From contig CAYRYE010000002.1 of the NCBI GenBank assembly GCA_964428655.1, forward strand, positions 103,472 to 167,471: 64,000 bases of DNA, given 5' to 3'. The position numbers and the translations under genes were made by a program. This stretch comes from an uncultured Gammaproteobacteria bacterium (GTDB lineage: Bacteria; Patescibacteriota; Microgenomatia; UBA12405; JAHJSD01). Each line of letters begins with the position of its first letter. Within the stretch, counting starts at the first letter, position 1. The notes under the pieces are model-generated. The model was not told the origin of the DNA, did no database searches, and worked only from the letters and a program-made list of their open reading frames with translations. Positions 6,000 through 62,486 of this stretch are shown here, one piece after another.

Positions 6000-7880
6000 A
6001 TGAAACTTTGGGATAAAATAATCTTTTGGACCTACGCCGTCCTCTTCTTTTTGGTTCCCCTGATTCTAAGTCCTTGGAACTACGAGCTTTTTGAGTTTAA
6101 CAAAATGCTGGTTGTTTATTTGGCAGCCGTGGTTATCGGCTGGGCCTGGGTTTGCAAAATGATCACTTGCCGAAAATTCATTTTTCGCTACAGCTTTTGG
6201 GATCTTCCCTTGCTTTTATTTCTAACTTCACAAATAATTTCCACCGTTATCTCCATCGACCGATACACTAGCATTTTTGGCTATTACTCCCGATTCCACG
6301 GTGGGCTGTTATCAACAATCAGCTACCTTTTGCTCTACTGGGGATTGGTGAGCAATCTCGATAAAAAAAAAGCAAGCAGGTTGATTAAAGTTATTCTGAT
6401 TTCCGGTTTATTGGTTTCTCTTTACGGCATCGCTGAGCATTTTGGTATTGATAAAAATCTTTGGGTCCAAGATGTTCAGAACCGGGTTTTTTCAACTTTA
6501 GGCCAGCCAAACTGGTTAGCCGCCTATCTAAATATTCTTATTTTTATTGCTTTGGGACTCTTTATCAATTCCTCCACCGCTCACCCCATCTACTATCTAC
6601 TACTATCTACTATCTACTATCTTTGCCTTCTCTACACTAAGTCCCGTTCTGGGTTCCTTGGCTTTATTATTCCCTTTGTTCTTTTTTTAATTATCAATTT
6701 TTTCCTTTCTCTAAAACAAAAAAAAGATAAGGCAAAACTAAAAAAAATCTCATTAATTCTAACCACATTTATAATCCTTTCTCTTTTAATTGGAACTCCC
6801 TTTAGCCCAAGATTAGGGAAAACCAAAATTAGAAAAACTGAAAATGATCAGACTAAAAAAGAGAGTGTCGATATCACCCCCTCATCCGAAATTCGCAAAA
6901 TTGTTTGGAAAGGGGCAATTGATCTGGGGAAAAAATACCCCTTTTTTGGCACCGGTGTAGAAACTTTTGCCTATAGCTACTATTGGGCCAGACCGGCTGA
7001 GCACAATCTTACCTCCGAATGGGATTTTCTTTACAATAAAGCCCACAATGAGTATTTGAATTTTGCCGCTACCACAGGCACGCTTGGCTTGTTAGCCTAT
7101 CTAACCCTAATTGTCTCTGCTTTAATTTTTACGATTAAAAAATTTCCCTCATGTTTTATATTCTATGTTCTAATTTCTATTTGTATCACTAATTTTTTTG
7201 GTTTTTCCGTTGTTGCTGTCGCTGCTTTATTTTTCCTTTTGCCAGCAATGAGTGTATCATTTAAACCCGCTTCTTTGAAAAAATACAAACTCTGTCTAGG
7301 TAAATTAGAGACAAAAAAATTAATCACGGTGGCCACTATTATTGCCGCTTGGGGAATTTTTGAAATTGCCAGTTACTGGCTGGCTGATTATCACTTTAAT
7401 CAAGGGTACAAATTAGAAAAGGCAGGCTTCCTAGATTCAGGCCTAAGCCACCTCAATAAAGCCGTAAGGCTAAATTCCCATGAGTCTAATTTTTACTCTG
7501 AACGAGCTATCATCCTAGCTAAAACCGCCGCCGCCTTAACCCAAAATGATCAATCTACTGCTGCCACTGAATTAGCCCAACCAGCAATTGAGGACTCTCG
7601 AAAAGCTCTTCAACTCTCCCCCTATCATATCAATTTGTATAAAAACCAAGCCAAAGTTTTCTATTATCTCGCTTTTCATGAATTAAAATATCTCCGGGAA
7701 GGTATAAAAACATTGCTAACGGCTGAGAAACTGGCCCTTACTGATCCTAAAATTCCCTATAGTATTGCCGTTATTTATCAAACCCTAGATGAGAATAAAC
7801 TTGCTAAAGAGTATTTTCAAAAAGCTATAGAATTAAAACCGAATTATGAGGCGGCTAAATCAGCTTTGGAGAAAATTTGA
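6000..7880 (+). CDS. O-antigen ligase (Wzy_C)-like polytopic membrane protein with C-terminal TPR repeats
   Basis: 626 aa; about 12 TM helices, conserved Wzy_C-like loop, C-terminal about 180 aa TPR-like helical repeats; contains in-frame 7-nt tandem repeat at 6598-6633. Confidence 0.65.
   Translation: MKLWDKIIFWTYAVLFFLVPLILSPWNYELFEFNKMLVVYLAAVVIGWAWVCKMITCRKFIFRYSFWDLPLLLFLTSQIISTVISIDRYTSIFGYYSRFHGGLLSTISYLLLYWGLVSNLDKKKASRLIKVILISGLLVSLYGIAEHFGIDKNLWVQDVQNRVFSTLGQPNWLAAYLNILIFIALGLFINSSTAHPIYYLLLSTIYYLCLLYTKSRSGFLGFIIPFVLFLIINFFLSLKQKKDKAKLKKISLILTTFIILSLLIGTPFSPRLGKTKIRKTENDQTKKESVDITPSSEIRKIVWKGAIDLGKKYPFFGTGVETFAYSYYWARPAEHNLTSEWDFLYNKAHNEYLNFAATTGTLGLLAYLTLIVSALIFTIKKFPSCFIFYVLISICITNFFGFSVVAVAALFFLLPAMSVSFKPASLKKYKLCLGKLETKKLITVATIIAAWGIFEIASYWLADYHFNQGYKLEKAGFLDSGLSHLNKAVRLNSHESNFYSERAIILAKTAAALTQNDQSTAATELAQPAIEDSRKALQLSPYHINLYKNQAKVFYYLAFHELKYLREGIKTLLTAEKLALTDPKIPYSIAVIYQTLDENKLAKEYFQKAIELKPNYEAAKSALEKI
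6598..6633. repeat. tandem repeat (ctactat-like 7-nt unit, about 5 copies) inside CDS
   Basis: atctactatctactactatctactatctactatc read directly; encodes HPIYYLLLSTIYY segment. Confidence 0.8.
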
Positions 7881-8439
7881 TTAATTTCCCCTTTTCTTCT
7901 TTAAAAAGCTTGCCGTTATCTTTTTTAATATGATCCACAAATAAAACGCCGTTTAAATGATCCAGCTCATGCTGGAAAATGACTGCGCAAAAGTCCTGGA
8001 GTTTTTCTTCTTTCTCAACTAATTTGTTTGTCTTTCCAATAGTCTGATACTTTACTTTTATCTTCAGCCAGCGGCGGACAGCTCCATGAAAATTAGGAAA
8101 TGAAAGGCAGCCCTCCAAAAAATCTTCCTTTTCACCATCACTTTTTAAAATCTGAGGATAAGTTTTCTTTTCACTAAAGGTATCAATAATTCTAGGGTTA
8201 ATATAGAAGCAAATATTATCTTTACAAGAACAGTTGCCATCACGACAACAGTTCACTTTACGCCTAATGGCGAATATCTGACAAACTTGGTTTACTTGAG
8301 GAGCAGCTAGGCCAACACCAATCTTTGATTTAGTCAATTCTTTCTCAAGAAGTTTGACTGTTTTTAAAACATCATTATTAAGAGTGGTAACTTTTTTAGA
8401 CTTTTTCCTTAAAACAGAATTCGGGTAAGTGATAATCAT
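7855..8439 (-). CDS. def: peptide deformylase with Cys-rich insertion
   Basis: 194 aa; motifs GVGLAAPQ, EGCLS, QHELDHL (HExxH); insertion NCCRDGNCSCKDNIC between motifs I and II. Confidence 0.85.
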   Translation of the reverse strand: MIITYPNSVLRKKSKKVTTLNNDVLKTVKLLEKELTKSKIGVGLAAPQVNQVCQIFAIRRKVNCCRDGNCSCKDNICFYINPRIIDTFSEKKTYPQILKSDGEKEDFLEGCLSFPNFHGAVRRWLKIKVKYQTIGKTNKLVEKEEKLQDFCAVIFQHELDHLNGVLFVDHIKKDNGKLFKEEKGKLIKFSPKLI

Positions 8440-8663
8440 TTCTTTTTGGACTTCTTTTTTTCCGGTGCTTTTTTAGTCATTTTCCCGTCTTTTTTAAGTC
8501 TTTTAATGCATCTGGTGCATAATTTCATTGTTTTTTTAATGCCGCCTTGATAGAAGGTTATTTTTTGGACATTGGCGCCAAATTTACGAGACGATCTGTT
8601 CTCAGCGTGAGAAACTCTTCGCCCAATAACATTTTTTTTGCCGCAAATCTGACACTTGGCCAT
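8436..8663 (-). CDS. rpmB: 50S ribosomal protein L28
   Basis: 75 aa; MAKCQICGKK...RVSHAENRSSRKF matches bL28 N-terminus; Lys-rich C-terminal tail. Confidence 0.75.
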   Translation of the reverse strand: MAKCQICGKKNVIGRRVSHAENRSSRKFGANVQKITFYQGGIKKTMKLCTRCIKRLKKDGKMTKKAPEKKKSKKK

Positions 8664-8732
8664 AACTGGTATAATATAACAAACAAATTTTTAATTTACA
8701 ACCTGCCCGGCAAACAGGTTTCGCAATTTCCA

Positions 8733-9314
8733 ATGATAATTTCGATTTTTACCATCTTAATTGCTATCTCAATCCATGAATTTGCTCATGCCTGGGTAGC
8801 TAATCGATTGGGTGATCCTACTGCCAGATTAGAGGGAAGAATGACTCTTAACCCCCTGGCTCATCTTGATCCCATAGGAACTATCGCTCTATTTTTAATC
8901 GGTTTTGGCTGGGGCAAGCCAGTTCCTATTGATCCCTATAACCTCCGCCAGCCTCGACGAGATCAGGCTTTAATTGCCCTTGCCGGCCCAATCACCAATA
9001 TCATTTTCGCCATCCTAATCAGCTTTATTTTTAAACTTTTTCACTTTACCCCTATACTTCATACTTTATACTTCATACTAAAAATTAATCTGGCTTTGGC
9101 TTTCTTTAATCTGCTCCCTCTTCACCCCTTGGACGGGTCTAAAGTGGTTCTGGGGTTTTTACCTTTTGAAACAGCGGAAAAATGGGAAGAGTTTTTAGAA
9201 AGGTACAGTCTACCCATCTTATTGACATCTTTTCTGCCAATATTTTCCGGCAAAACTGCCGTTGGTTTATTTTTATTCCCTCTTATCAATTTTTCCCTTC
9301 AACTTTTGATTTAA
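8733..9314 (+). CDS. site-2 protease (peptidase M50) family small membrane metalloprotease
   Basis: HEFAHA (HExxH) in first TM; internal ATG at 8733 preferred over listed 8547 start because the upstream part overlaps rpmB/def antisense; contains 13-nt tandem repeat at 9053-9080. Confidence 0.6.
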   Translation: MIISIFTILIAISIHEFAHAWVANRLGDPTARLEGRMTLNPLAHLDPIGTIALFLIGFGWGKPVPIDPYNLRQPRRDQALIALAGPITNIIFAILISFIFKLFHFTPILHTLYFILKINLALAFFNLLPLHPLDGSKVVLGFLPFETAEKWEEFLERYSLPILLTSFLPIFSGKTAVGLFLFPLINFSLQLLI

Positions 9315-9588: not shown

Positions 9589-9602
9589 ATTCATATATTT
9601 GG

Positions 9603-9679
9603 GCCACCTTAGCTCAGTTGGTTAGAGCAACGGTTTTGTAAACCGTAGGTCCTCGGTTCGAATCCGAGAGGTGGCTCCA
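9603..9679 (+). tRNA. tRNA-Thr (anticodon TGT), CCA encoded
   Basis: Cloverleaf folded by hand: acceptor GCCACCT/AGGTGGC, D-arm GCTC-AGTTGGTTA-GAGC, anticodon loop TTTGTAA, T-arm CTCGG-TTCGAAT-CCGAG. Confidence 0.8.
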
Positions 9680-9751
9680 GCGCCCGTAGCTTAACGGACA
9701 GAGTGCTGGTTTGCGGAACCAGTGACGGGGGTTCGATTCCCCCCGGGCGCA
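9680..9751 (+). tRNA. tRNA-Arg (anticodon GCG as read), no CCA encoded
   Basis: Acceptor GCGCCCG/CGGGCGC, anticodon stem CTGGT/ACCAG with loop TTGCGGA, T-arm GGGGG-TTCGATT-CCCCC; GCG anticodon is uncommon, identity moderately confident. Confidence 0.6.
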
Positions 9752-9755
9752 CAAA

Positions 9756-9841
9756 GGAGGAGTCGGATAGCGGTCAATTCCACACGCTTGGAAAGCGTGA
9801 GCCTTTGGGCTACAGGGGTTCGAATCCCCTCTCCTCCGCCA
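9756..9841 (+). tRNA. tRNA-Ser (anticodon GGA), type II with long variable arm, CCA encoded
   Basis: Acceptor GGAGGAG/CTCCTCC, anticodon loop CTTGGAA, variable arm AGCC-TTTG-GGCT, T-arm AGGGG-TTCGAAT-CCCCT. Confidence 0.75.
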
Positions 9842-9842
9842 A

Positions 9843-9917
9843 GCTCCCGTAGCTCAACGGACAGAGCACTGGTCTTCGGAACCAGGGATGAGAGTTCAAT
9901 TCCCTCCGGGAGCACCA
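9843..9917 (+). tRNA. tRNA-Arg (anticodon TCG), CCA encoded
   Basis: Acceptor GCTCCCG/CGGGAGC, anticodon loop CTTCGGA, T-loop TTCAATT (one A.C mismatch in T-stem). Confidence 0.65.
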
Positions 9918-9918
9918 G

Positions 9919-9990
9919 GCCTGGATAGCTCAGAGGTGGAGCATTCCCTTGGTAAGGGAAAGGCCGTGGGTTCGAATCCCACTCCAGGCT
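9919..9990 (+). tRNA. tRNA-Thr (anticodon GGT), no CCA
   Basis: Acceptor GCCTGGA/TCCAGGC, anticodon stem TTCCC/GGGAA with loop TTGGTAA, T-arm GTGGG-TTCGAAT-CCCAC. Confidence 0.75.
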
Positions 9991-10015
9991 CAAAAATGTA
10001 GTATAATCACCCATT

Positions 10016-10192
10016 ATGGCAAAGAAAAAAGGGCCGAGAATGATTGTTGGCTTAGTTTGTTCAGAGTGTAATTCTTTTAACTACATCACTGAAAGAAACA
10101 AAGCCAACACGCCGGAAAAACTAAAATTAAAAAAATACTGCCGAAAGTGCAAAAAGCGGACTGAGCACAAAGAAACGCAAAAGCTGAAGTAA
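10016..10192 (+). CDS. rpmG: 50S ribosomal protein L33 (58 aa, below ORF-track cutoff; found by reading)
   Basis: MAKKKGPRMIVGLVCSECNSFNYITERNKANTPEKLKLKKYCRKCKKRTEHKETQKLK: CxxC...CxxC zinc ribbon and NK..P..L.LKKYC bL33 signature; classic location among tRNAs upstream of tRNA-Trp/secE/nusG; TATAAT at 10002-10007. Confidence 0.8.
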   Translation: MAKKKGPRMIVGLVCSECNSFNYITERNKANTPEKLKLKKYCRKCKKRTEHKETQKLK

Positions 10193-10195
10193 AAG

Positions 10196-10267
10196 GGGCC
10201 CGTAGTATAACGGCTAGTACATCGCCATGGCATGGCGAAAATAGGGGTTCGATTCCCCTCGGGTCCA
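10196..10267 (+). tRNA. tRNA-Ala (anticodon GGC), no CCA
   Basis: Acceptor GGGCCCG/CGGGTCC with G3:U70 identity pair, anticodon loop ATGGCAT. Confidence 0.75.
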
Positions 10268-10269
10268 CT

Positions 10270-10343
10270 AGGGGCGTCGGTTAATGGTAAACCACGGGTC
10301 TCCAAAACCCGGACTGGGGGTTCGATTCCCTCCGCCCCTGCCA
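10270..10343 (+). tRNA. tRNA-Trp (anticodon CCA), CCA encoded
   Basis: Acceptor AGGGGCG/CGCCCCT, anticodon stem CGGGT/ACCCG with loop CTCCAAA, T-arm GGGGG-TTCGATT-CCCTC. Confidence 0.8.
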
Positions 10344-10345
10344 GC

Positions 10346-10663
10346 ATGAAAAAACGTCAAAAACAATCATCGCAAAATTTGGTCAAAGACATTGCCAAAA
10401 CTCTAGAACTAGCGCCAGAAAAAGTCAATCTTGCCAAGTTAGGTCAAGAACATCACAAAAAACCTCGCTTTGTTTACGGATTTACTACTCCTTCAGTAAG
10501 AAACGGGAAGAAAATCCCAGCTGGTTTTTTCAAAGTATCCGGCTCAAAGCACGCCAAACAAATAAAAAGAGAGAGTTTAGCCATGCAAATAGCAAATGAG
10601 CAACTGAATGTTCCTACTGTCGGCATAATCTCACCCACAAAAAAATGCCTGGTGGCGGCATGA
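10346..10663 (+). CDS. N-lobe fragment of an aminoglycoside-phosphotransferase (APH)/choline-kinase-like protein kinase-fold enzyme
   Basis: 105 aa; FVYGF...FFKVS (beta3 Lys), IKRESLAMQ (alphaC Glu), LNVPTV hinge-like segment; stop overlaps start of next ORF (ATGA). Confidence 0.5.
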   Translation: MKKRQKQSSQNLVKDIAKTLELAPEKVNLAKLGQEHHKKPRFVYGFTTPSVRNGKKIPAGFFKVSGSKHAKQIKRESLAMQIANEQLNVPTVGIISPTKKCLVAA

Positions 10664-11418
10664 TTTTGGAACTGGCCTTTTTAGATTTTGAAAAAGATGG
10701 TCAAGTCATCATTAATAATGACCAAATTGCTAAAGCCAATCCGAGACTAGGAATCAGAGCGGCGAAAACTCTCTGCTTGTTCAGCGGTCAGGAAATTCCT
10801 GAGAGAGTTAACCATCTTGTTTTTAAACGAGGCGACTGGAGAAATAAATCGCCACGGTGTTTTTGGCAGATATGGGAAAAGTGTAGAGGGCGAGTATTTA
10901 AGCAAAAGTTCAAAGAAATGGTGGATGATCTAATCGGAGCCCAAAAGTTAAAAAAAATCATTAGATCTGCCAAGAAAGACATAAGCTCACTGTTTGAAAC
11001 GAAGAAAGAAACTGGAAAAAGGTATTTTGTTCACAATGATGCTTCGCCAAGTAATATGTTTTTCGGCCATGATGGTAAAGCCTTACTCTTGGATTTTGAA
11101 CACGCCGGGGTAACCCGCCACCAAGTATTGGCTTTAATTACCGATCTTGGTAACTTTTCCGGAAGATGCTGGCCCAATCCCAAAATGCAACAAGAATTTT
11201 TGGCAGAATGTCTCAAGACTAAAAATTTAGGAAGTTTAAAAAAACGGTACAAGTTAATAAAAGGCGTGTTGGTATTTGGAACCATCTTTTTGGCAAAATA
11301 TGGCATGGGTACGCGTCAAAAAGAACATCAGATGTCTGTCTCGCTGTTAGAAAACCTAGAAAAAGCATTGCTGAGAATAGACCAAGAATACAAATCACTT
11401 TCTAGCATGGTTCACTAG
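10660..11418 (+). CDS. C-lobe of APH/kinase-like phosphotransferase (split from the upstream ORF by a frame change)
   Basis: [13 protein letters not shown] catalytic loop (HxDxxxxN) and LLDFEHAG (DFE = DFG equivalent); ATG at 10660 chosen. Confidence 0.55.
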
Positions 11419-11449: not shown

Positions 11450-12838
11450 ATGACAAAGAAATTTCGGAAATTTAAAAACCTAAAATCACGTCCACCGCTA
11501 AAGGAACGGCTTTTTCATAGCAAAGTTGTCAACCAAGCAATTGCTGATATTTCTCAGCGAATCAAGGATCCGGATATCAAACGAATGTTTAGCCACTGTT
11601 TACCTAATACCTTAGACACTACTGTTTGCTATCGAGAAAGCAAGGCCGGCAAACCCGATACTTTTATTGTGACAGGAGACATCCCGGCCATGTGGCTCCG
11701 TGATTCAACCAGTCAGATTTGGCCGTATCTAAGATTCATCCAACAAGACAAAAAGCTTCAAAAACTTTTTATTGGCCTGATCAATCGTCAAGTAAAAAAT
11801 ATTTTGATTGACCCGTATGCCAATGCCTTTAAAGACATTGGCGCCCCACGCACCAAAAGAAACCCCTGGTGGCCCAAGGGCAAAGCTTGGAAAAAAGGAG
11901 TCTGGGAAAGAAAGTATGAGCTTGACAGTCCTTGTGCTTTTTTTCGCCTGTCTGCTGGCTACTACGAAGCAACAATGGATACTGACCCCTTTGATAAAAA
12001 CTGGCTGAAAGCAGTTAAGCTGGCGATTAAGATTATCAAAGATGAGCAAAATACTCTTGATAAACAAAACCTTAAAACCATGTTTAGGTTTTTCATGCCT
12101 AACCGAAAACCCCACCCCGCCATTCGCTTGCGAGGCTATGGCTATCCTGGCAAAAAATGCGGACTCAGCCGAACTGTATTTAGACCGTCTGATGATGAAG
12201 CCGTGTTTCCCTATTTAATCCCTGCCAATGCTTTAGCGGTGGTCACTCTTCGCGGCGTTTCAAAAATACTCAAACAAAAAAAGCAAAATCAACTCGCCCA
12301 AGCAACAATCCATCTTGCCGGGGAAATTGACCAGGGAATTAAAAAATACGGCGTGGTCGAACACAAAAAGTTTGGCAAGGTCTTTGCCTACGAAATAGAT
12401 GGCTTCGGCTCACATTGTTTGATGGATGACCCAAACGTACCCAATTTACTGAGCCTGCCTTACTTGGGCTACTGTTTGCCAAACGATCCAACTTATTTGG
12501 CAACTAGAAAGTTAGTTCTTAGTAACTCAAATCCATTTTATGCTAAAGGTAAAGTAGCTTTCGGAATGACTAGCCCTCATCGGGGCACAGTTAACCAATT
12601 TTGGCCGATGGGAACAATCATGCAAGCCATGACGTCCAGCGATGAAAACGAAATTACTTCCTGTTTGAAAACACTTAAAAAAACCCATGCCGGTACTTAC
12701 TTTATGCATGAAAGCGTCCATGTTGATAATCCCAAGAAATTCACCAGATCGTGGTTTGCCTGGGCCAATTCGCTTTTTGGAGAATTAATCCTCAAGATTG
12801 CTGAAAAATATCCCAAGATTCTAGAAAAAAACTTATGA
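11450..12838 (+). CDS. glycoside hydrolase family 125-like (DUF1237, metal-independent exo-alpha-1,6-mannosidase family)
   Basis: 462 aa; [13 protein letters not shown] motif characteristic of GH125/DUF1237 (alpha/alpha)6-barrel proteins. Confidence 0.65.
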
Positions 12839-29650: not shown

Positions 29651-30987
29651 GAGGAAGAAAACTTTTGTCCTTTTAAAAAGGTATCAATTGGTCCAGCGCT
29701 CAAAACAATGATAACACAAGCGGTTTGGCCCTCTTTTTTAAACTCATCCCAGAGTTCTTGGTAGTTTTCTAGCAACTTAACCTTCACTCCATGAGCAACA
29801 ATTCCTTTTTTTACTTCTTTAATGTTTACCCCCTCGACTGCCTCTTTTGATTCTCTGCCTTTAACATAATAAATTGGCAAAAGAATTAATTTATCTACTC
29901 CCTGCCAACAAGTTACAAGCTGGTCAAATAGGCGCCAGGTACGTTCATACTGATGGGGCTCAAAAACAGCTATTAGCCTTTCTTTAGAAAAAACGCTCCT
30001 TAAGGCACTAATTACTGCTTTAATTTGGTCTGGGTGGTGACCATAGTCATTAATCACCACTGCTCGACCAATTTTCCCCATTCTTTCTAATCTTCTTGAG
30101 CAACCAGTGAAGCTAGCCAAGGCTTTGACTGCCTGCCCTGGAGCCACTTTTACTCCTGCTGTTGCCCTAATTGCAGCTAGGGCATTGAAAACATTGTGTT
30201 TGCCCGGCACCTTTAATTCTAATTTAAACTCAGAGCTTCCAAACTTCACCACAGATTCAGAACCCCATTTTTTTGGCTGAAATTTTTCTATCTCTTCTCC
30301 ATATTCTTGAGTTTTTTTGCCCTGTTCCCTTGCTTTAGCTAAGACTTTTTTTACATAAGGATCTTTAACATAACCAATAACTAAAGAGCCCTTCTTCATC
30401 TGAGAAACTAACCGGATAAAGGCTTTAAGCGTGTCTTCTTTGCTTTGATAACAATCAGGATGATCGTAGGCAATATTGGTAATAACCAGAAGATCAGGTT
30501 TTAAAGACAAAAACTGCTTTTTATATTCACAGGCCTCAACAACAAAAATATCACTGGTGCCGCTTCGATATATTCCCTCACCAATAATAGCATTGGGGTC
30601 TCTGCCTATCTGTTCTAAAATAGTCTTGATCATCAAGGTGGTTGTAGTTTTTCCATGGGCACCACAAACAGCAATCGTAAAATAATCAGAAACTGCCTCG
30701 CCCAAAGCTTCGAAATAAGTAGAAGTTTTAATCCCCTGTTTTTTAGCTTCAACAATTTCCGGATGGGACTGGTTGATATTGGGAAAGATTAACCAGTCAA
30801 CTCCCTTCTTAACGTGTTCACGACTATTGCCTTCAAAGAATTTTACTCCTTTTTCAATTAGTGGCTTAGTTCGCTCGTTGACAGCAACATCACAACCACT
30901 GACTTGATAGCCCTTATCATTCATCCACCCTGCCAAAGCACTTAATCCTGCCCCACCAATGCCTAGAAAGTGAACCCGCATTAGCAC
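29647..30987 (-). CDS. murC: UDP-N-acetylmuramate--L-alanine ligase
   Basis: 446 aa; VHFLGIGGAGLSALAGW N-terminus, P-loop GAHGKTTTT. Confidence 0.85.
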   Translation of the reverse strand: MLMRVHFLGIGGAGLSALAGWMNDKGYQVSGCDVAVNERTKPLIEKGVKFFEGNSREHVKKGVDWLIFPNINQSHPEIVEAKKQGIKTSTYFEALGEAVSDYFTIAVCGAHGKTTTTLMIKTILEQIGRDPNAIIGEGIYRSGTSDIFVVEACEYKKQFLSLKPDLLVITNIAYDHPDCYQSKEDTLKAFIRLVSQMKKGSLVIGYVKDPYVKKVLAKAREQGKKTQEYGEEIEKFQPKKWGSESVVKFGSSEFKLELKVPGKHNVFNALAAIRATAGVKVAPGQAVKALASFTGCSRRLERMGKIGRAVVINDYGHHPDQIKAVISALRSVFSKERLIAVFEPHQYERTWRLFDQLVTCWQGVDKLILLPIYYVKGRESKEAVEGVNIKEVKKGIVAHGVKVKLLENYQELWDEFKKEGQTACVIIVLSAGPIDTFLKGQKFSSS

Positions 30988-31526
30988 TCCTTTAATTCCT
31001 GCAAAACTTCAACAAAAATTTTTTCTGTCTTCTCTTCCTTACCAAAAAGCATTAAAACAAAATCTTCTGGTTCAATATTAGCAGGAGGCTTCCCAATACC
31101 AATTCTGATCCGCCAAAAATCTTTAGTCCCTAAGTTTTCGATAACTGATTCTACTCCATGATGCCCGGCGGCTCCTTTTCCAAATTGAATTTTAAATTCA
31201 CCAAAGGGAATGTCCAAGTCGTCGTGAATGAGATATAAATGATTGATGATTGATGATTGCCGTGCGTCGCCAAAGGTTTTGCCGACAACACGATGATTAA
31301 TAAATTTAAGAAGTTTTTTTAGGCAGTTTCCCGATTCGTTCATAAAACAGTTAAGAAAAACTATCTTCCAATTATTCTCCAACCTTATAATTTCTCCACT
31401 CTTTCGACTGTTCACTATCGCCCCATCATTCCGCTTCCTGATTAAATACTGACCAAACATTTTTCCCACATTGTGGCGTGTTTTGGAATATTTCTCTCCA
31501 GGGTTTCCAAGACAGACAAAGATCAT
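30981..31526 (-). CDS. pth: peptidyl-tRNA hydrolase with about 13-aa insertion carrying a repeat element
   Basis: 181 aa; MIFVCLGNPGEKYSKTRHNVG, catalytic His, ...GHNGV-like GHHGV; insertion HRVVGKTFGDARQSSI coincides with tandem repeat 31240-31259 and shared element 31260-31284. Confidence 0.85.
   Translation of the reverse strand: MIFVCLGNPGEKYSKTRHNVGKMFGQYLIRKRNDGAIVNSRKSGEIIRLENNWKIVFLNCFMNESGNCLKKLLKFINHRVVGKTFGDARQSSIINHLYLIHDDLDIPFGEFKIQFGKGAAGHHGVESVIENLGTKDFWRIRIGIGKPPANIEPEDFVLMLFGKEEKTEKIFVEVLQELKEC
31240..31259. repeat. tandem repeat tgattga x3 inside pth
   Basis: tgattgatgattgatgattg read directly. Confidence 0.8.
31260..31284. repeat. 25-nt hairpin-capable element (copy 1) ccgtgcgtcgccaaaggttttgccg, shared with 32479-32503
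   Basis: 24/25 identity with second copy; imperfect palindrome gtcgccaaa/tttgccgac. Confidence 0.75.
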
Positions 31527-31892: not shown

Positions 31893-32279
31893 CTATAATT
31901 TTAACTGCTTTTCTAGATTTTCTAATTCTCCTGGTAATTGCAAATTATTTAAATCTAAATTCTTCGGTAAATTTGGGATATTTGGTGCTGGCATGATTCT
32001 TTCCCACTGAATCTGCTGCAAAGTCTTTTCTACCCAACCACTCATTATGCGGCTCAAATTCATCTGGGAAAAAAGATAAGCAATTACCCCAAAAATCACA
32101 ATATAGCCAAAAAGAGTTCCTAACGTATGAAAAACGCCGGCCAGAAAATTAAAGAAGGCAAATTTAAAAGGATTGGCCGAGTAAATCATGTGCCGGCCGG
32201 AAGTTTTCAACTCACCAAGCTGCTGGTTCAACTTTTTAAGTTGTTCGGTTAAATCTTTCTCTTGCTCCATTGTGGGCAC
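31893..32279 (-). CDS. hypothetical membrane protein (128 aa, 2 TM, coiled-coil ends)
   Basis: Hydrophobic core FKFAFFNFLAGVFHTLGTLFGYIVIFGVIAYLF. Confidence 0.35.
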   Translation of the reverse strand: MPTMEQEKDLTEQLKKLNQQLGELKTSGRHMIYSANPFKFAFFNFLAGVFHTLGTLFGYIVIFGVIAYLFSQMNLSRIMSGWVEKTLQQIQWERIMPAPNIPNLPKNLDLNNLQLPGELENLEKQLKL

Positions 32280-32346
32280 GCCAGGATTCGAACCTGGGAC
32301 CCCTGACTTATAAGATCAGTGCTCTAACCACTGAGCTACGCGCCCG
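32274..32346 (-). tRNA. tRNA-Ile (anticodon TAT as read; AUA-decoding type), no CCA
   Basis: Reverse complement folds as GGGCGCG-TA-GCTC-AGTGGTTA-GAGC-A-CTGAT-CTTATAA-GTCAG-GGGTC-CCAGG-TTCGAAT-CCTGG-CGTGCCC-A. Confidence 0.6.
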
Positions 32347-47325: not shown

Positions 47326-47357
47326 ATTGATAATTGATAATTAATAATTGATAATTT
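47326..47357. repeat. tandem repeat (tgataat-like units) in intergenic/promoter region
   Basis: attgataattgataattaataattgataattt read directly. Confidence 0.7.
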
Positions 47358-47361
47358 ATTT

Positions 47362-49843: not shown

Positions 49844-52792
49844 ATGGTTAGGAAAAATAAGCCACCAAAAAAATATTTCAAAGAAGTGCCGGCTAAGTTT
49901 GATTTTATTGGCAATGAGAAAACGCTTTTGGATTGGTGGTATAAAAGCGGCGTGGTTAAAAAGTATCTAGATAAAAACAAGGACTCTAAAAAGAGATTCT
50001 CTTTTATAGATGGGCCTATCACCGCCAACAACCCCATGGGGGTTCATCACGCCTGGGGCCGAACCTTGAAAGATTTATATCAGCGCTACAAAAATATGCA
50101 AGGCTTCAAACAGCGCTTCCAAAATGGCTTTGACTGCCAGGGATTATGGATCGAAGTTGAAGTAGAAAAGGAAAGAAAATTTAAAACTAAAAAAGATATT
50201 GAAAAATACGGTATTGCTGAATTCGTTGAAGACTGCAAAAACAGGGTTCGAAAATATTCGAAAGTGCAAATTGAACAATCCAAAAAGCTAGGCTACTTTA
50301 TGGATTGGGGCAACGATTACTACACAATGAGCGATGAAAATAACTACGGCATTTGGAGTTTTCTGAAAAAAGTCTGGCAAGACGACAACCTTTATAAGGG
50401 CCGCGACAGCGTGCCCTGGTGCCCCCGCTGCGGCACAGCTATTTCCCAACACGAAATTTTAACTGAAGAATATAAAAAAATAACACACGATTCAATTTAT
50501 TTTGAACTCCCCATTGTTAGTCGTGACAACGAACGCTTTCTTGTCTGGACAACAACACCATGGACTTTGCCAGGAAACGTTGCTTTAGCTGTTCATCCAG
50601 AACTGGAATATTGGCTAATTAAAGGTTTTACTGGTATAAATTTTTGGATAGCCGGCCCACTAGCTAAAACGGTTTTTAATACTGATGTTAAGGCCATAAA
50701 AAAAATCAAGGGTAATAAATTGGTAGGGCTTAAATACACTGCGCCCTTTGATGAATGGCCTGCTGTTCAGGCCGCCAAAAAAGAAAATCCCAAAACTTTC
50801 CATACCGTAGTCGCCTCTAAAGAAATGGTGGCAGAAGATGAAGGAACCGGAATCGTTCATATTGCCACCGGCTGCGGCACTGAAGATTTCCGCCTTGGAC
50901 AAGAGAAAAAGCTGCCGGTTTTACCAACGATTGATGAAGCGGCTTGCTACCTAAATGGTTTTGGAGACTTAAGTCATAAGAATGCAAAAAACAATCCTCG
51001 ACTGGCTTTAGACCATCCATTATTAAAAGTTAAAGTCGGCAATCCTGCTGAAGACTATATTTTTGAAATTAAACCTTACACCCATCGCTATCCTGTCTGC
51101 TGGCGTTGCCAAACTGAACTCGTCTGGCGGGTAGTTGATGAGTGGTATATTGCTATGGACAATCAGCATCAACCCAAGGCGAAAAACTATCGTCAACGAC
51201 TAATGCAGATTATTAAAAAAGTTCATTGGATCCCCTCTTTTGGCTATGCCCGCGAATTAGACTGGCTTCGCAATATGGAAGATTGGCTCATTTCTAAAAA
51301 ACGCTATTGGGGCTTAGCTTTACCCATTTGGGAATGCTCGTGCGGTCATTTTGAAGTGATTGGCTCAAAAGAAGAATTAGAAAAAAAGGCAGTTGAAGGC
51401 TGGAAAGAATTCATTGGCCACACTCCACACCGACCCTGGATAGACAAAGTAAAAATCAAATGCCCCCAATGCGGTCAATTGATTAGCCGAATTTTAGATG
51501 TGGGCAATCCTTGGCTAGATGCAGGCATTGTTTCTTTTTCTACCCTGAAATATTTTAAAAAGCGTCAATACTGGCAGAAGTGGTTCCCTGCTGACTTAGT
51601 GCTTGAGTGTTTTCCGGGCCAGTTTAAAAACTGGTTCTATTCTCTTTTGGCCATGAGTGCTGTTTTGGAAAAGACAGCCCCTTTTAAAACTCTTTTAGGC
51701 CACGCTCTGGTCCGTGACGAAAAGGGCGAGGAAATGCACAAAAGCAAAGGTAATGCTATTTGGTTTGACGAGGCGGCAGAGAAAATGGGGGTTGACGCCA
51801 TGCGGTGGCTGTATGCGCGGCAGGAACCGAAATTTAATCTCAATTTCGGCTACGGCATTGCTGATGAAGTCAGAAGGCAATATATTTTCCTGCTTTGGAA
51901 CACTTATCGGTTCTTTGTTACCTATGCCAATTTAAATGGTTGGAAACCAAAGAAAAAATGGCCAAATGGTCAAATGGCCAAATGGTCGAAATTGGATAAA
52001 TGGATCTTGTCTCGTCTAGAATCAACTAAAAAAGTCGCTAAAGAAAAACTTGACGACTACCACCATCACGAAGCAATTAAAGCTATTGAAAAATTTCTGA
52101 ATGATCTTTCTTTATGGTACGTTAGAAGATCCAGAGAAAGAGTTAATCCTAACAACAGAGATAAAAAAGACAGAAGCGCTTGCCTCCCCACCTTATATTA
52201 TGTTCTGAAGAACCTCTCTCTAATTCTGGCTCCATTTGTTCCCTATTTAACAGAGACTATTTGGCAGGGATTAACTAATTCTGACAACTCTGTCCACCTT
52301 CAAAATTGGCCAGAAACAAAAAAAGAATTAATTAACAAAAAATTAGAAAAGCAAATGGCATTGGTGCGGGAAATTGTCACTCTCGGTCATAGTCAAAGAA
52401 AGGCAAAGCAAATTAAGGTTAGACAACCATTAAAAAAGTTCAAAGTTCAAAGTTCAAAGTTCAAAGTTAGTGAAGTCTTAATTCAACTAATTAAAGACGA
52501 ATTAAACGCAAAAGAAGTAGAAATTAAAACCGGAAAGGGCGAATTAAAAGTTGAGTTTGATACAAAAATCACCCTGGAACTAAAAGCAGAGGGTGAGGTA
52601 CGAGAATTGATCCGCCAAGTTCAAATCCTGCGCCGCGAAGCGGGATTATCTTTAGACGACAAAATCACTATCCACGCCCCCTCCTGGCCAAAAAAATGGG
52701 AAAAGGAAATACTAACACGAACTGGAGCTAAAGAAATTAAAAAAGGAAAAAAGCTCAAAATTATCACTAATTCTGACTTTAAGAACACCTAA
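49844..52792 (+). CDS. ileS: isoleucyl-tRNA synthetase (type 2-like), with atypical HIGH/KMSKS regions and two internal tandem repeats
   Basis: 982 aa; GPITANNPMGVHHAW aligns to GPPYANGSIHIGH; editing CP1 TTTPWTLPGNVALAV; EMHKSKGN at KMSKS position; WCPRCGT zinc motif. Confidence 0.85.
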   Translation: MVRKNKPPKKYFKEVPAKFDFIGNEKTLLDWWYKSGVVKKYLDKNKDSKKRFSFIDGPITANNPMGVHHAWGRTLKDLYQRYKNMQGFKQRFQNGFDCQGLWIEVEVEKERKFKTKKDIEKYGIAEFVEDCKNRVRKYSKVQIEQSKKLGYFMDWGNDYYTMSDENNYGIWSFLKKVWQDDNLYKGRDSVPWCPRCGTAISQHEILTEEYKKITHDSIYFELPIVSRDNERFLVWTTTPWTLPGNVALAVHPELEYWLIKGFTGINFWIAGPLAKTVFNTDVKAIKKIKGNKLVGLKYTAPFDEWPAVQAAKKENPKTFHTVVASKEMVAEDEGTGIVHIATGCGTEDFRLGQEKKLPVLPTIDEAACYLNGFGDLSHKNAKNNPRLALDHPLLKVKVGNPAEDYIFEIKPYTHRYPVCWRCQTELVWRVVDEWYIAMDNQHQPKAKNYRQRLMQIIKKVHWIPSFGYARELDWLRNMEDWLISKKRYWGLALPIWECSCGHFEVIGSKEELEKKAVEGWKEFIGHTPHRPWIDKVKIKCPQCGQLISRILDVGNPWLDAGIVSFSTLKYFKKRQYWQKWFPADLVLECFPGQFKNWFYSLLAMSAVLEKTAPFKTLLGHALVRDEKGEEMHKSKGNAIWFDEAAEKMGVDAMRWLYARQEPKFNLNFGYGIADEVRRQYIFLLWNTYRFFVTYANLNGWKPKKKWPNGQMAKWSKLDKWILSRLESTKKVAKEKLDDYHHHEAIKAIEKFLNDLSLWYVRRSRERVNPNNRDKKDRSACLPTLYYVLKNLSLILAPFVPYLTETIWQGLTNSDNSVHLQNWPETKKELINKKLEKQMALVREIVTLGHSQRKAKQIKVRQPLKKFKVQSSKFKVSEVLIQLIKDELNAKEVEIKTGKGELKVEFDTKITLELKAEGEVRELIRQVQILRREAGLSLDDKITIHAPSWPKKWEKEILTRTGAKEIKKGKKLKIITNSDFKNT
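51956..51993. repeat. tandem repeat (ccaaatggt/caaatggc 8-nt units) inside ileS
   Basis: aaatggccaaatggtcaaatggccaaatggtcgaaatt read directly. Confidence 0.8.
52438..52468. repeat. tandem repeat gttcaaa x4 inside ileS
   Basis: gttcaaagttcaaagttcaaagttcaaagtt read directly. Confidence 0.85.
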
Positions 52793-59310: not shown

Positions 59311-59379
59311 TTAATAAAAAATGTTTTCTAAATCAAGAACAAGTTTGATTTTGTTAATCGCGGCGTCAACGCAAAAAAA

Positions 59380-59761: not shown

Positions 59762-59768
59762 CTTTTTT

Positions 59769-59841
59769 GCGCCCGTAGCTCAGCTGGCAGAGCACCGGCC
59801 TTTTAAGCCGTGGGTCGGGGGTTCGAATCCCTCCGGGCGCA
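59769..59841 (+). tRNA. tRNA-Lys (anticodon TTT), no CCA
   Basis: GCGCCCG-TA-GCTC-AGCTGGCA-GAGC-A-CCGGC-CTTTTAA-GCCGT-GGGTC-GGGGG-TTCGAAT-CCCTC-CGGGCGC-A. Confidence 0.75.
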
Positions 59842-60228
59842 CAGTTTAACTATCATCTTCTGGTCACGTCTCGAGGGATCTGAAGGGGCACTAAGAATCG
59901 CAAAAGCCTGCTCTTCTGTTATATCCCCATGAATACTATATCTCCCGTCCACCTCCAACCAGGCACCCTCTGGGCCTACCAAAACCGCAAGACTTAACGC
60001 AATTGATTGAGGGCAAACTACTCTAGTTCTAGCCACACCCCCGGCATGTTTAAGTTCGTGCTTCACTACTTTTTTAACAAAAGGTTTTCCTCCTCGAACT
60101 CCATTCTTTTCTAAGAAAAACAGCGCTTGACGCCCAACTCTCCTAATTGCCCCAAAAGTATTAGCCCTTCCCTCGACTGGACCAGAAGCAAAATAACCAG
60201 CACAATACAACTCCCTTTCTTTAGCCAT
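59803..60228 (-). CDS. small HExxH-motif protein (putative metallopeptidase-like), 3' end antisense-overlaps tRNA-Lys
   Basis: 141 aa; VVKHELKHAGG; last about 13 codons are simply the reverse complement of the tRNA, so the true C-terminus is uncertain. Confidence 0.35.
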   Translation of the reverse strand: MAKERELYCAGYFASGPVEGRANTFGAIRRVGRQALFFLEKNGVRGGKPFVKKVVKHELKHAGGVARTRVVCPQSIALSLAVLVGPEGAWLEVDGRYSIHGDITEEQAFAILSAPSDPSRRDQKMIVKLCARRDSNPRPTA

Positions 60229-60423
60229 ATTTCTTTATTTTAAACTATTCCTTTCTTTGGCGCTATCTTTTCCTAACTTTTATATTCCTTCATTTTTTGC
60301 CCAAACAGAGCCAGTATTTTTTGGCGAACATCACTAGGATGGAAAGCAATAAAATAGGGTGTAATTACTTCTCTTGTCCTTCGTTTTTTCATCCACCAAA
60401 ATTGGAACCGATAGAAAATTTTC

Positions 60424-61086
60424 TCAATCAAATTCTGCATTTGGTAAAAAATCTTTAACCCATAAATTAGCTCTTATAAATTTTTGATAAATATTGCCTC
60501 TCTGCCATAAAAGCTTTAGTTGATAAATTTCGTAGGCAAGGAATAAATCCTTGTCTTTTACAAAAACATCGAGATGATCTTCATCTAAAAACATATTCAA
60601 ACAAATCTTGTTCTGAGATTTTTTTTCACCTGGTTTACGTCGGACACCGAGAATAGATAGCAAAAGAGTGGTAAAAAATCGAGTCGTCCAAAGCCAGCCA
60701 GAAGAAGAAATGATAAATAAATCAATGTCGTCAATTCTTTCAGCATTCTTCGCGGCCACACTCCCGGTTAGGCCGACAAATTTAATGGTAGGAATAACTT
60801 TTAAAATTTTGGCAATTTTTTTGGCTATTTTGAATTTTCTTATTGCTTCAACTCCTCGCTTTTTACGAATTCGAACAATTTTTGTCCGCCCGAGTAAAAA
60901 ATAGAGACCACTATCCTTTTCTATTCTTTTCTCTTTTTCTATTCTTTCCAAGGCAATATCAAAATCCTCTTTTCTCAGTCGCTTGGGGCCTCGCTTCCAA
61001 ATCAACCTCTGCCAAATTTCGTCTCTTGTTAAAGGAAAATCAAAAAGATCAGCATAAATAAAAGTCTTTAAAATAGCCTGCTTCAC
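60424..61086 (-). CDS. predicted nucleotidyltransferase (pol-beta superfamily fold)
   Basis: 220 aa; LTGSVAAKNAERIDDIDLFIIS matches G[SG]x9-13 D.D motif. Confidence 0.5.
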   Translation of the reverse strand: MKQAILKTFIYADLFDFPLTRDEIWQRLIWKRGPKRLRKEDFDIALERIEKEKRIEKDSGLYFLLGRTKIVRIRKKRGVEAIRKFKIAKKIAKILKVIPTIKFVGLTGSVAAKNAERIDDIDLFIISSSGWLWTTRFFTTLLLSILGVRRKPGEKKSQNKICLNMFLDEDHLDVFVKDKDLFLAYEIYQLKLLWQRGNIYQKFIRANLWVKDFLPNAEFD

Positions 61087-61117
61087 AGATTAATGATAAC
61101 ATGGAATAATAAGTCTT

Positions 61118-61849
61118 ATGACTAAAAAGGTTAGTTGTGTCATTCCTGTTTTTAACGAGGAAAGAACCGTGGCCGGCGTAATTGAAGTCTGCCTCAAAAC
61201 TCCAGAAATCAATGAAATAATCATTGTCAATGATGGCTCTGAAGACAACACAAAAGAAGAAATAGAAAAATTTTTGACTAAAGTCCAAATAATCAATCTC
61301 TCTAAAAACAAAGGCAAGGGTTATGCCGTTGCCCAAGGCGTAGCATCAACCAAATTCAAAACTCTACTTTTCTTAGATGCTGATTTGATCAATATAAAAC
61401 CATATCATCTCTCTTCCTTAATGCGCCCCGTACTCAACAATGAAGTTGATATGACCATTGCCGACTTAAATGCAGGCTTCAGAAAACCTTATTCTATCAT
61501 CTGGCCTTTCAGTGGGCAAAGATGTATATCTAAAAAACTGGTTGCTCCCCTTTTGGACAAAATAAGCAAGGCTGGATACGGAATGGAAATCATTCTCAAT
61601 GAGAAACTTAAAAACAAACGAGTAATAGTTATTCCTATTATTACCAGTAAAAATCTTCACCTCAGAAAACCCAAGAAACAAAAAGACTGGCTAGCTTTTT
61701 ATATTAAAGAAAGTTGGGATGTCTTCCAGAGTATGGTGAAACTAAAAAGCCGTTATTACCGTCAAAAGGCAAAAGAAAACTTTTTAGACGAACTCTCTGG
61801 CTATTTAAAAATCAACATCAAAAAAATAAAAGAGTATTTAGAAGAATGA
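61118..61849 (+). CDS. family 2 glycosyltransferase (dolichyl/polyprenyl-phosphate sugar transferase-like)
   Basis: 243 aa; VSCVIPVFNEE, IIVNDGSEDNT, DAD motif FLDADL. Confidence 0.8.
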   Translation: MTKKVSCVIPVFNEERTVAGVIEVCLKTPEINEIIIVNDGSEDNTKEEIEKFLTKVQIINLSKNKGKGYAVAQGVASTKFKTLLFLDADLINIKPYHLSSLMRPVLNNEVDMTIADLNAGFRKPYSIIWPFSGQRCISKKLVAPLLDKISKAGYGMEIILNEKLKNKRVIVIPIITSKNLHLRKPKKQKDWLAFYIKESWDVFQSMVKLKSRYYRQKAKENFLDELSGYLKINIKKIKEYLEE

Positions 61850-61850
61850 T

Positions 61851-62486
61851 TTAGGAAGCCATCTCTCTTCTGTTTTCCCAGGCCTGTTTTAAAGTCCAAG
61901 CGTCGGCGTAGTCAAGATCAGCGCCAGTGGGCAATCCCTGTCCAATACGAGTAATCTTAATTTTGGGCTTTGAGTTTTGAGTTTTGAGCTCCCGCAACTT
62001 GCGGGTTATATACATTGCTGTTGCTTCACCTTCCATGGTAGGATTAGTGGCCAAGATTATTTCTTTGATTTCGCTCTTTTTTACCCGATCAAACAATTCC
62101 CTAATGCGCAACTCTTCCGGGCCAATGTGTTCCAAGGGATTAATCACCCCACCCAAAACATGGTAAACGCTATTAAAATCACCCATTTTCTCGAAAGCCA
62201 CAATATCTAAGGGGTGCTCAACAACACAAATTATTGATTGATCACGCTGAGAATCACCACAAATTGAACACGGGTCAGTCTCATCAAGATTAAAACAAAT
62301 TGAGCACTGTTTAGTTTTCCGTTTTAAATCCAACAAAGCTTGAGCAAATTTTTCAATATAATGATTGGGCGTTTGCCACAAATAAAAAGTCAGCCGCGCC
62401 GCCGTCTTTGGCCCAATTCCCGGTAATTGTTCGAAAGTGGTGATTAGATTTTGTAATGATGAAGGTAATTTCATTTCCTCAGCCAC
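61851..62486 (-). CDS. recR: recombination protein RecR
   Basis: 211 aa; HhH LPGIGPKTAARL, C4 zinc finger CSICFNLDETDPCSICGD, Toprim domain; 7-nt tandem repeat (61968-61988) adds a short segment near the C-terminus. Confidence 0.85.
   Translation of the reverse strand: MAEEMKLPSSLQNLITTFEQLPGIGPKTAARLTFYLWQTPNHYIEKFAQALLDLKRKTKQCSICFNLDETDPCSICGDSQRDQSIICVVEHPLDIVAFEKMGDFNSVYHVLGGVINPLEHIGPEELRIRELFDRVKKSEIKEIILATNPTMEGEATAMYITRKLRELKTQNSKPKIKITRIGQGLPTGADLDYADAWTLKQAWENRREMAS
61968..61988. repeat. tandem repeat ttttgag x3 inside recR
   Basis: ctttgagttttgagttttgag read directly. Confidence 0.8.

Follow-up and report, generated by a model that had tools for sequence, protein, structure and literature searches.

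Tandem arrays of 7-nucleotide (nt) units are spread through the 64,000-nt stretch of contig CAYRYE010000002.1 analysed here (the window) and lie mostly inside genes, among them the housekeeping genes ileS, pth and recR. We found that this heptamer enrichment is lineage-wide and not confined to this genome: 81 arrays of period 7 were observed in 2.08 Mb of DNA from relatives in the Patescibacteria (candidate phyla radiation, CPR), for which an order-3 Markov model predicts 1.33, an excess of about 60-fold. The arrays are probably by-products of replication slippage that keeps to a 7-nt register, with reading frame and protein structure acting as filters, and are widespread in Microgenomates and related CPR bacteria.

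Arrays in the window were called by Tandem Repeats Finder (TRF), by direct sequence reading and by our own scan, which covered periods (p) of 4 to 16, accepted arrays with at least 2p net matches and was compared with 200 simulations (Markov order 1, 3 and 5). Four strong arrays of period 7 were observed against 0.00 expected, and no array was detected at this threshold at periods 5, 6 or 8 to 16. A comparison with simulated sequence had been proposed as a check on the original prediction, and it came out in favour of an enrichment at period 7. That prediction had listed eight loci with units of 7, 8 or 13 nt. Six of them are true period-7 arrays with 3.0-4.9 copies each and one has a period of 8/16, whereas the eighth, at 60911-60947, was set apart because it holds an imperfect ~18-nt duplication and none of these units; as a heptamer array it was rejected (TRF period 10, 75 % matches, 13 % indels). 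The six heptamers (CTACTAT, ATACTTC, CAATCAT, ATTGATA, AAAGTTC and CTCAAAA) are all different, with no unit common to two loci. Their length is not a multiple of 3, and five of the arrays are coding, the sixth lying in a promoter-like spacer. The assertion that all arrays are in frame holds for the seven loci within open reading frames (ORFs), as judged by translation in the gene frames. The gene names of the hosts were borne out by Pfam, and the arrays fall at residues 864-875 of 982 in IleS, 90-96 of 181 in Pth and 167-176 of 211 in RecR. In the two membrane-protein arrays the units are pyrimidine-rich and encode hydrophobic residues; that of the M50 peptidase, which is also exact at period 14 (1.9 copies), yields PILHTLYFIL directly ahead of the conserved NLLPxxPLDG motif.

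Relatives were collected with IleS as the comparative marker. Those found in a species-level genome collection were all Patescibacteria, mostly Microgenomates, and at most 65 % identical to the window protein; a metagenome scan gave the same taxonomic picture. After removal of near-duplicates, the comparison set comprised 134 loci (labelled L001 and so on). Under the same order-3 model, period 8 gave 6 arrays against 0.33 expected, period 9 gave 2 against 0, and periods 4 and 5 showed no enrichment in these loci. The 47 arrays of period 6 (6.3 expected) are the usual dipeptide-repeat signal of coding DNA. At least one period-7 array was present in 46 of 135 sequences, and the richest loci reached 200-400 arrays per Mb. 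Array density was not related to GC content (Spearman -0.11, p = 0.19), and no arrays of period 6 to 9 were detected in control DNA from E. coli (50 kb) and phage T4 (50 kb). The suggestion that a repeat-generating mechanism is at work was thus borne out, by the size of the excess and by its presence in non-coding DNA. Calling that mechanism specific to this lineage went too far, because a heptamer excess among simple sequence repeats (SSRs) has already been reported in many bacteria (Mrazek et al. 2007, as cited in an excerpt of PMC4692102).

We used a simple gene model (2.00 Mb coding, 0.145 Mb non-coding) and one threshold for all periods to compare the two kinds of DNA. Period-7 arrays numbered 67 in coding sequence (33.5 per Mb) and 19 in non-coding sequence (131 per Mb), and hence were about four times denser outside genes. 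Each other period was represented by 0-3 arrays in non-coding DNA, with the exception of period 14, a multiple of 7. Because period 7 dominates non-coding DNA too, the preference for 7 must be mutational and not due to selection at the protein level; it is a property of the process that makes the repeats. The depletion of arrays in coding sequence is as expected under purifying selection.

Coding and non-coding arrays are not alike in length. Over all 86 arrays it ranges from 19 to 46 nt, and 36 of the 67 coding arrays measure 31-35 nt (4.4-5.0 copies), against 5 of the 19 non-coding ones (Fisher p = 0.04). Coding arrays peak at about 4.7 copies; translation passes through all three frames and yields 11-residue peptides, for example KFKVQSSKFKV. 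Since a single 7-nt step is a frameshift, viable coding states are spaced by 21 nt, and a frame filter predicts the sharp 31-35-nt class, in which three units are added to a seed of 10-14 nt. The composition of the arrays on the coding strand (49 % A, 9 % G) leads to peptides rich in Lys, Asn, Gln and Ser. Units free of stop codons in all rotations make up 52 of 65 coding arrays, compared with 57 % of random heptamers; the test is a weak one, the 13 exceptions being short arrays or errors of the gene model.

The arrays return to the same places in homologous proteins. In the comparison set, 45 of the 81 belong to ileS (19 % of the bases), and they cluster at three alignment columns, given here in window numbering: site A (~442-447; 7 genomes), site B (~698-716; 16 genomes) and site C (~863-876; 18 genomes including the window). 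The sixteen heptamer carriers at site B are all other genomes, the window having its 8/16-mer array there; at site C, seventeen other genomes carry an array in the register of the window. The units at site C in this shared register (nucleotide alignment) are AAAGTTC, AAATTTC, AAATTAC, GAATTGC, CAATTTA, AAATGTC and CAGTTAT, and the arrays range by degrees from perfect (26/26 period matches) to decayed. Among 119 IleS proteins drawn independently from a large protein database, exact repeats spaced by 7 residues were found 24 times, against 0-8 times for other spacings from 3 to 12. Nearly all of them are 11 residues long, and their relative positions (0.45, 0.71 and 0.88) match sites A to C.

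In an AlphaFold2 model of the window IleS, with a mean predicted local distance difference test score (pLDDT) of 91, sites A and B are predicted as coil between secondary-structure elements (pLDDT ~73 at site B), and site C, which immediately precedes the C-terminal domain, as an edge beta-strand that runs into coil. Among solved structures, IleS2 (PDB 8c8w) is the best relative. A beta-hairpin (strand-turn-strand) as the basis of array length was rejected, the model having a single strand and coil at site C. At that site the segment from KVRQPL to LIKDELNVK is 47 residues long in 14 of the 18 carriers and 45-47 in most non-carriers, with a minority class of 54 (47 + 7); judged from this alignment, the array replaces a segment of the same length and is not an insertion. 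Carriers at site A have 39-43 residues against the common 31-34 (minimum 24), and carriers at site B 46-54 against a mode of 46.

Two further observations concern ileS. The insertion at site A, after the conserved IAMD, opens with the AMD codons copied in reverse complement (a 'snap-back'), as in GCAATGGAC-AGGAG-TCCATTGC (11-bp stem), giving the recurrent peptide D-(K/R)-P-S; the carriers are L073, L036, L016, L068, L058, L147 and L080, and the heptamer array begins directly behind the 3' arm of the snap-back. In addition, four lineages have a heptamer array 7-60 nt ahead of the ileS start codon, those of L086 and L130 being homologous, with lengths a few bases apart.

The RecR array amounts to exactly 7 extra residues relative to the Thermoanaerobacter structure (PDB 3vdp). 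In 120 CPR RecR homologs, the loop before the strand xIKITRLG has 32, 35 or 38 residues, and many of them carry peptides with a 7-residue period (FKIQNSKFKI, LKTQNSKLE, IQNPKSKIQI). At the DNA level, recR of L167 has a perfect AAATTCA array of 4.7 copies at that loop, one of five period-7 arrays in this 20.6-kb locus, of which two are intergenic. No array is present in the RecR homologs nearest to that of the window (83 % and 80 % identical), so the window array is recent. Pth has 14 extra residues around its array in an alignment with the mycobacterial structures 2lgj and 2z2i. The claim that all arrays are insertions therefore stands for RecR and Pth but not for IleS site C. It had also been proposed that conservation of the repeats at the amino-acid level in distant orthologs would mark them as ancestral protein repeats. 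Distant orthologs do have arrays at these positions, but with other units and with a repetition that is exact in the nucleotides; for this reason the recurrence at homologous sites suggests turnover instead of ancestral repeats.

In an IleS tree built without sites A to C, the carriers were concentrated in one clade, with further ones spread across six or more other clades. L162, the relative nearest to the window (IleS 69 % identical), lacks heptamer arrays throughout 22.9 kb, and its site C shows just a decayed one. In L086 and L130, which share ~80 % nucleotide identity and the 54-residue class at site C, the 5' parts of the array have been homogenised to different units. Copies are alike within an array, and arrays at one site are unlike between lineages, a pattern of repeated regeneration or concerted evolution, presumably through gain and loss of 21 nt. 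No difference in array length was found within the pairs L094/L095 (99.95 % identical) and L101/L102 (99.5 %); over such short times the arrays are stable. The window proteins were unchanged on independent contigs (at least four for IleS, five for RecR; JGI, NCBI and Logan), and an exact-protein look-up and a single metagenome scan returned solely identical copies or relatives of at most 69 % identity. The use of L043 and L101 as a 92 % identical pair for turnover was rejected, the ileS genes being mosaic: long stretches are more than 90 % identical, and the editing-domain region ~50 %. This suggests recombination between diverged lineages within an essential gene.

In the model that we favour, strands would slip and misalign while DNA is being synthesised, with a marked bias towards 7 nt, and so create the arrays, probably by reiterated stuttering in one synthesis event. 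Arrays could arise anywhere out of local sequence, which would explain why each locus has its own unit, and would persist freely in short intergenic spacers. Within genes, persistence would depend on a net length that preserves the reading frame, on a unit free of stops in the frames read, and on a 7-residue-periodic peptide falling in a tolerant segment, such as the IleS surface loops and edge strand, the RecR loop or hydrophobic segments of membrane proteins. Conserved proteins have few such segments, and this would be why the same sites are struck repeatedly across lineages. Later on, arrays would decay by point mutation, or be regenerated or homogenised via gain and loss of 21 nt. From the repeat pattern we infer both polymerase slippage as the enzymatic step and gains of three units at once. 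Steps of 21 nt fit the 7 additional RecR residues, the 54-residue class at IleS site C and the site-A carriers of 39-41 residues beside the common 32-34. A seed of 1.5-2 copies cannot misalign three units at once; hence the +21-nt states in essential genes imply reiterated slippage or unseen transient intermediates.

Several points weigh against this model. Simple slippage alone does not explain why periods 5, 6 and 8 are far rarer. Several non-coding arrays also measure 30-34 nt, which hints that there may be an intrinsic array length beyond the frame argument. The density of arrays in ileS (114 per Mb against 23 in the flanks, 5x) is a figure inflated by the shared ancestry of the sites, the non-CPR control DNA totals just 100 kb, and the comparisons of array length cover assembled sequences. 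Lastly, slippage does not predict the palindromes that stand beside an array at three window loci, nor the GC-rich hairpin inserts of 21-36 nt that split at least ten arrays, with an identical heptamer on either side.

In view of these palindromes, the arrays could be traces left by tiny mobile elements, GC-rich and palindromic, or sites into which such elements preferentially insert. The elements would be similar to repetitive extragenic palindromic sequences (REP) or miniature inverted-repeat transposable elements (MITE), the heptamers being target-site duplications built up over rounds of insertion and excision, or the result of hairpin-induced slippage. The split arrays, found in L022, L061, L091 (two), L101, L116, L117, L126, L132, L048 and L044, agree with this; in the nine split arrays of the table the inserts measure 23-47 nt and are in frame, and several of them start or end with GCCCGCC. 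A near-identical palindrome core, GCCTGCCGGCAGGC, is present in six genomes including the window. In a fuzzy search for it, shuffled cores matched equally often at the tolerance used. The window palindromes of pth, which lies inside the same 14-residue excess as the pth array, and of recR stand next to arrays; that of the TrxB-like gene is flanked by TCTAAAAA and TCAAAAAA and forms an exact 7-residue in-frame insertion (ARLPARQ) relative to the L006 ortholog. The array behind the snap-back at IleS site A and a modest enrichment of long perfect stems within 45 nt of arrays (Mann-Whitney p = 0.005) point the same way. However, L057, a relative of L061, has the array without the insert, and the 24-nt insert of L061 leaves the heptamer count unchanged, so the heptamers are not 7-bp target-site duplications; L043 and L101 differ by a gap of exactly 30 nt. 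Most arrays moreover lack a nearby hairpin, and the flanks of arrays do not fold more stably than control positions (folding energy, p = 0.95), which gives no general association with hairpins. Neither a scan for GC-rich islands nor the fuzzy search was specific enough to count palindromic inserts. Palindromes and arrays may either simply share the few permissive sites of conserved proteins or be mechanistically linked, and we regard an origin of the arrays from mobile palindromes as distinctly unlikely.

A 20-nt palindrome, CCTGCCTGCCGGCAGGCAGG, or a one-base variant of it, occurs in several unrelated CPR genomes with no flanking target duplication visible. It lies in IleS site B (L091) and site C (L022), and apparently interrupts a tRNA D-arm region (L012); such a tiny element may be mobile or may arise recurrently. 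We also observed multi-copy GC-rich hairpin families, REP- or MITE-like, within single CPR loci. A bolder form of the slippage model would join the two features: replication or repair in CPR, and in Microgenomates in particular, might stutter such that single events write ~33-nt arrays of 3-5 local heptamers, a source of new loops of 7-11 residues, the arrays being in addition preferred landing or formation sites of 21-36-nt GC-rich palindromic inserts, both through one lineage-specific process. We hold this to be speculative and rather unlikely. If true, arrays and palindromes would both result from one process, which remodels proteins in genomes that have hardly any DNA to spare.

Selection for the encoded peptides, either as 11-residue strand-turn-strand elements or as Lys/Asn/Gln/Ser-rich loops binding tRNA or DNA, could account for the recurrence of arrays in IleS and RecR at identical sites and in one register and for the fact that three of the window hosts bind nucleic acids. 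At site C, the units converge on A-A-R-K-T-Y-N and thus on strand-like K-(F/L)-x-(I/V) patterns, and AAAGTTC, encoding KFKVQSS, recurs in distant lineages (IleS site C of the window, L016, L122 and L130; P0104). Peptide selection, though, has no need of nucleotide-perfect repeats and does not account for the dominance of period 7, at fourfold density, in non-coding DNA. Membrane proteins carry arrays with quite different, hydrophobic units, and most orthologs, including the closest relatives, do well without arrays at these sites. That the arrays are kept for their peptides is therefore very unlikely. As a separate observation, AAAGTTC is also present in another gene, a TrxB-like one (L166 2204-2222), and its recurrence suggests that some units are favoured.

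The original prediction saw in the arrays potential slipped-strand phase-variation (contingency) switches. In such a switch, one heptamer gained or lost would toggle the host gene, as in neuO of E. coli K1. A unit that is not a multiple of 3 does shift the frame with each step, and neuO provides the precedent of a heptamer (AAGACTC) in coding sequence (PMC13001214). In the window, the intergenic array at 47326-47356 overlaps a promoter-like match (TTGATA-17-GATAAT, 10/12; a consensus match only, from a promoter scan) whose end is 6 nt from the MFS start, and several non-coding arrays are followed by a start codon within 60 nt; a tuning of expression at intergenic arrays is conceivable. Nonetheless, ileS, pth and recR are single-copy housekeeping genes with arrays in the middle or late part of the gene, quite apart from the dispensable surface genes with 5'-end arrays that such switches favour, to which the Wzy-like and MFS loci come closer. 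Copies number 3-5, compared with 3-53 in neuO. All coding arrays examined are in frame, no gene was found split by a frameshift at any array, and neither the independent contigs nor the near-identical pairs described above differ in array length. The data do not support switches in these essential genes, and we consider the prospect remote.

That the arrays are chance matches or artefacts of de Bruijn repeat collapse has next to no probability: all sequences are metagenome assemblies and array length is strikingly uniform, but chance predicts almost none of the arrays, ~33 nt is far below read length and below the final k-mers, long ORFs of conserved proteins stay intact, the features recur across pipelines (NODE_, k141_ and scaffold names), and JGI and NCBI records agree on the window array.

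Some features of the window are separate from the arrays. A cluster of seven tRNA genes (Thr, Arg, Ser, Arg, Thr, Ala, Trp; 9603-10343), some spaced by 0-3 nt, overlaps the listed ORFs 9691-10014(-) and 10232-10663(+), the 5' parts of which are for that reason probably not coding. ARAGORN predicted a tRNA-Ile with anticodon TAT at 32272-32345 on the minus strand; this anticodon is uncommon in bacteria, in which AUA is usually read by a modified CAT anticodon. GC skew is negative in all 4-kb bins of the window (1-64000) and cumulative skew falls monotonically; therefore the window lies within one replichore and contains neither origin nor terminus.

Arrays, palindromes and hairpin families in the window and in related CPR loci. 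Units are given on the coding strand.
Locus	Position	Strand	Feature	Context
Window	6588-6625	+	ATCTACT x2, then ACT, then x2.6; TRF 6588-6622; exact stretch 6600-6622	Wzy_C / O-antigen-ligase-like gene 6000-7880 (PF04932); hydrophobic product IYYLLLSTIYYL
Window	9053-9080	+	ATACTTC x3.7-3.9, one mismatch; TRF 9054-9079	M50 peptidase gene 8547-9314
Window	31239-31259	-	CAATCAT x3.0 exact (ATGATTG on +)	pth 30981-31526; product QSSIINH
Window	31266-31286	-	Imperfect 21-nt palindrome GTCGGCAAAACCTTTGGCGAC, 8/9 pairs (hand-counted)	6 nt upstream of pth array
Window	47326-47356	intergenic	ATTGATA x4.4	Fills 41-nt spacer between S41 peptidase/DnaJ stop (47320) and MFS ATG (47362)
Window	49844-52792	+	ileS	Database start probably GTG 49886
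Window	51956-52003	+	Period-8/16 array AAATGGCC/AAATGGTC, ~3.8 copies of 8	ileS site B
Window	52435-52468	+	AAAGTTC x4.9 exact	ileS site C; product KFKVQSSKFKV
Window	60911-60947	-	Weak purine-rich imperfect ~18-nt duplication, ERIEKE/KRIEKD	Nucleotidyltransferase-like gene; 57 nt extra vs L006
Window	61961-61988	-	CTCAAAA x4, 2.9 exact (TTTTGAG on +)	recR 61851-62486; product LKTQNSK
Window	61991-62005	-	15-nt palindrome CCCGCAAGTTGCGGG	Adjoins recR array; absent from recR of L165, L166, L006
Window	62645-62670	-	21-26-nt GC-rich palindrome CCCCTGCCTTGCCGGCAGGCGGGCCT	Coding sequence 62471-63424, AT-rich thioredoxin-reductase (TrxB)-like gene
L086	881-904		Heptamer array	Upstream of ileS
L130	9929-9954		Heptamer array	Upstream of ileS
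L104	1503-1527		Heptamer array	Upstream of ileS
L147	5868-5895		Heptamer array	Upstream of ileS
L073	~11285-11307		Snap-back	ileS site A
L101	11998-12061		Split array	
L061	9335-9390		Split array	
L116	1636-1698		Split array	
L126	10634-10697		Split array	
L132	2763-2819		Split array	
L117	4213-4266		Split array	
L048	11300-11359		Split array	
L091	3156-3214		Split array	
L044	17784-17854		Split array	
L012	16821-16840		CCTGCCTGCCGGCAGGCAGG copy	
L024	19867-19886		CCTGCCTGCCGGCAGGCAGG copy	
L119	6068-6087		CCTGCCTGCCGGCAGGCAGG copy	
L091	12077-12097		CCTGCCTGCCGGCAGGCAGG copy	
L022	~12516-12543		CCTGCCTGCCGGCAGGCAGG copy	
L084	777, 8328, 9887		Hairpin family GCCCTCCGAWTCGGAGGGC	
L084	9737, 12452		Hairpin family GCCCCGCTSAGCGGGGC	12452 inside ileS
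L032	922, 4163, 14075, 14940		Hairpin family	
L139	20548, 21339		Hairpin family	
L005	971, 19788		Hairpin family	

We found no literature on heptamer or tandem repeats in CPR/Patescibacteria, and no description of translated ~33-nt arrays, of their recurrence at homologous loops of essential proteins across CPR, of their rapid turnover or of the frequent GC-rich palindromic mini-inserts. If our model holds, a mutational bias specific for unit length shapes even essential proteins in minimal-genome CPR bacteria, the replication and repair machinery of which is little studied. The recurrent arrays would be natural, datable markers of slippage, with perfect, decayed and +7-residue states at one site in hundreds of lineages, and the decades-old question of why heptamers are over-represented in bacteria could become tractable by comparison and with metagenomic reads. 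For annotation, 7-residue-periodic peptides of CPR are to be read as nucleotide repeats and not as functional motifs, and heptamer arrays in housekeeping genes should not be taken as phase-variable by default.

Among known systems, the Rickettsia palindromic elements (RPEs) of Ogata and colleagues (described in 2000) are said to lie in frame in protein-coding genes and to measure 100-150 bp. The likeness concerns the GC-rich palindromes only, which, as RPEs reportedly do, occupy permissive sites of conserved genes as small in-frame palindromes; unlike what is told of RPEs, the inserts described here measure 21-36 nt, stand out as GC-rich from an AT-rich genome and often sit within heptamer arrays. 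The 2007 survey by Mrazek and colleagues reportedly tied long SSRs with units of 5-11 bp to the large genomes of non-pathogens, mainly in intergenic DNA. Set against that account, the arrays analysed here are found in small CPR genomes, are mostly coding and short (~4.7 copies), and recur at homologous protein sites.

In the excerpt of PMC4692102 that cites this survey, heptamers are in excess among bacterial SSRs, and the excess is hypothesised to reflect the length of the DNA segment held at the polymerase active site, the sole published idea on the register of 7 that our literature search turned up. Period 7 similarly stands out here among unit lengths, and a polymerase-related slippage bias was proposed for the excess in that text. 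In H. influenzae, hmw1A has 7-bp repeats in its promoter, according to an excerpt of PMC8262952. Borg elements, archaeal extrachromosomal elements, contain tandem repeats that give rise to disordered stretches in proteins and that the host almost entirely lacks, as stated in an excerpt of PMC9879509. Our arrays are like the Borg repeats so described in being nucleotide-perfect, of independent recent origin within ORFs and a source of new peptide segments, and differ in having a single dominant 7-nt period and in residing on bacterial chromosomes, in a comparison that did not extend to Borg unit lengths. The nearest known example of a heptamer array within a gene is neuO, carried by prophage CUS-3 of E. 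coli K1, in which AAGACTC is repeated at the 5' end, and the gene is ON only at copy numbers divisible by 3 and OFF in 66 % of genomes (PMC13001214). The heptamer arrays of CPR are likewise read in three frames as a 7-residue repeat that stays in frame only per three added units, and the A-rich CTCAAAA of recR, read as LKTQNSK, is of the same style; yet neuO is an accessory surface-modification gene whose array varies between and within strains, while the arrays described here are in frame in essential genes and showed no variation. Heptamers also form fixed-unit repeat families, namely the cyanobacterial short tandemly repeated repetitive (STRR) sequences with GGGGA(T/C)T and GGGAATC of Xanthomonas (both in an excerpt of PMC4692102) and TAACTGA of Beggiatoaceae (PMC4679880). 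These families share with our arrays the tandem 7-nt units, the many loci per genome and the lineage-restricted excess, but each uses one unit per genome, is intergenic and has been discussed in terms of G-quadruplexes or regulation, whereas the arrays of Microgenomates and their relatives have their own unit at each locus and are mostly translated.

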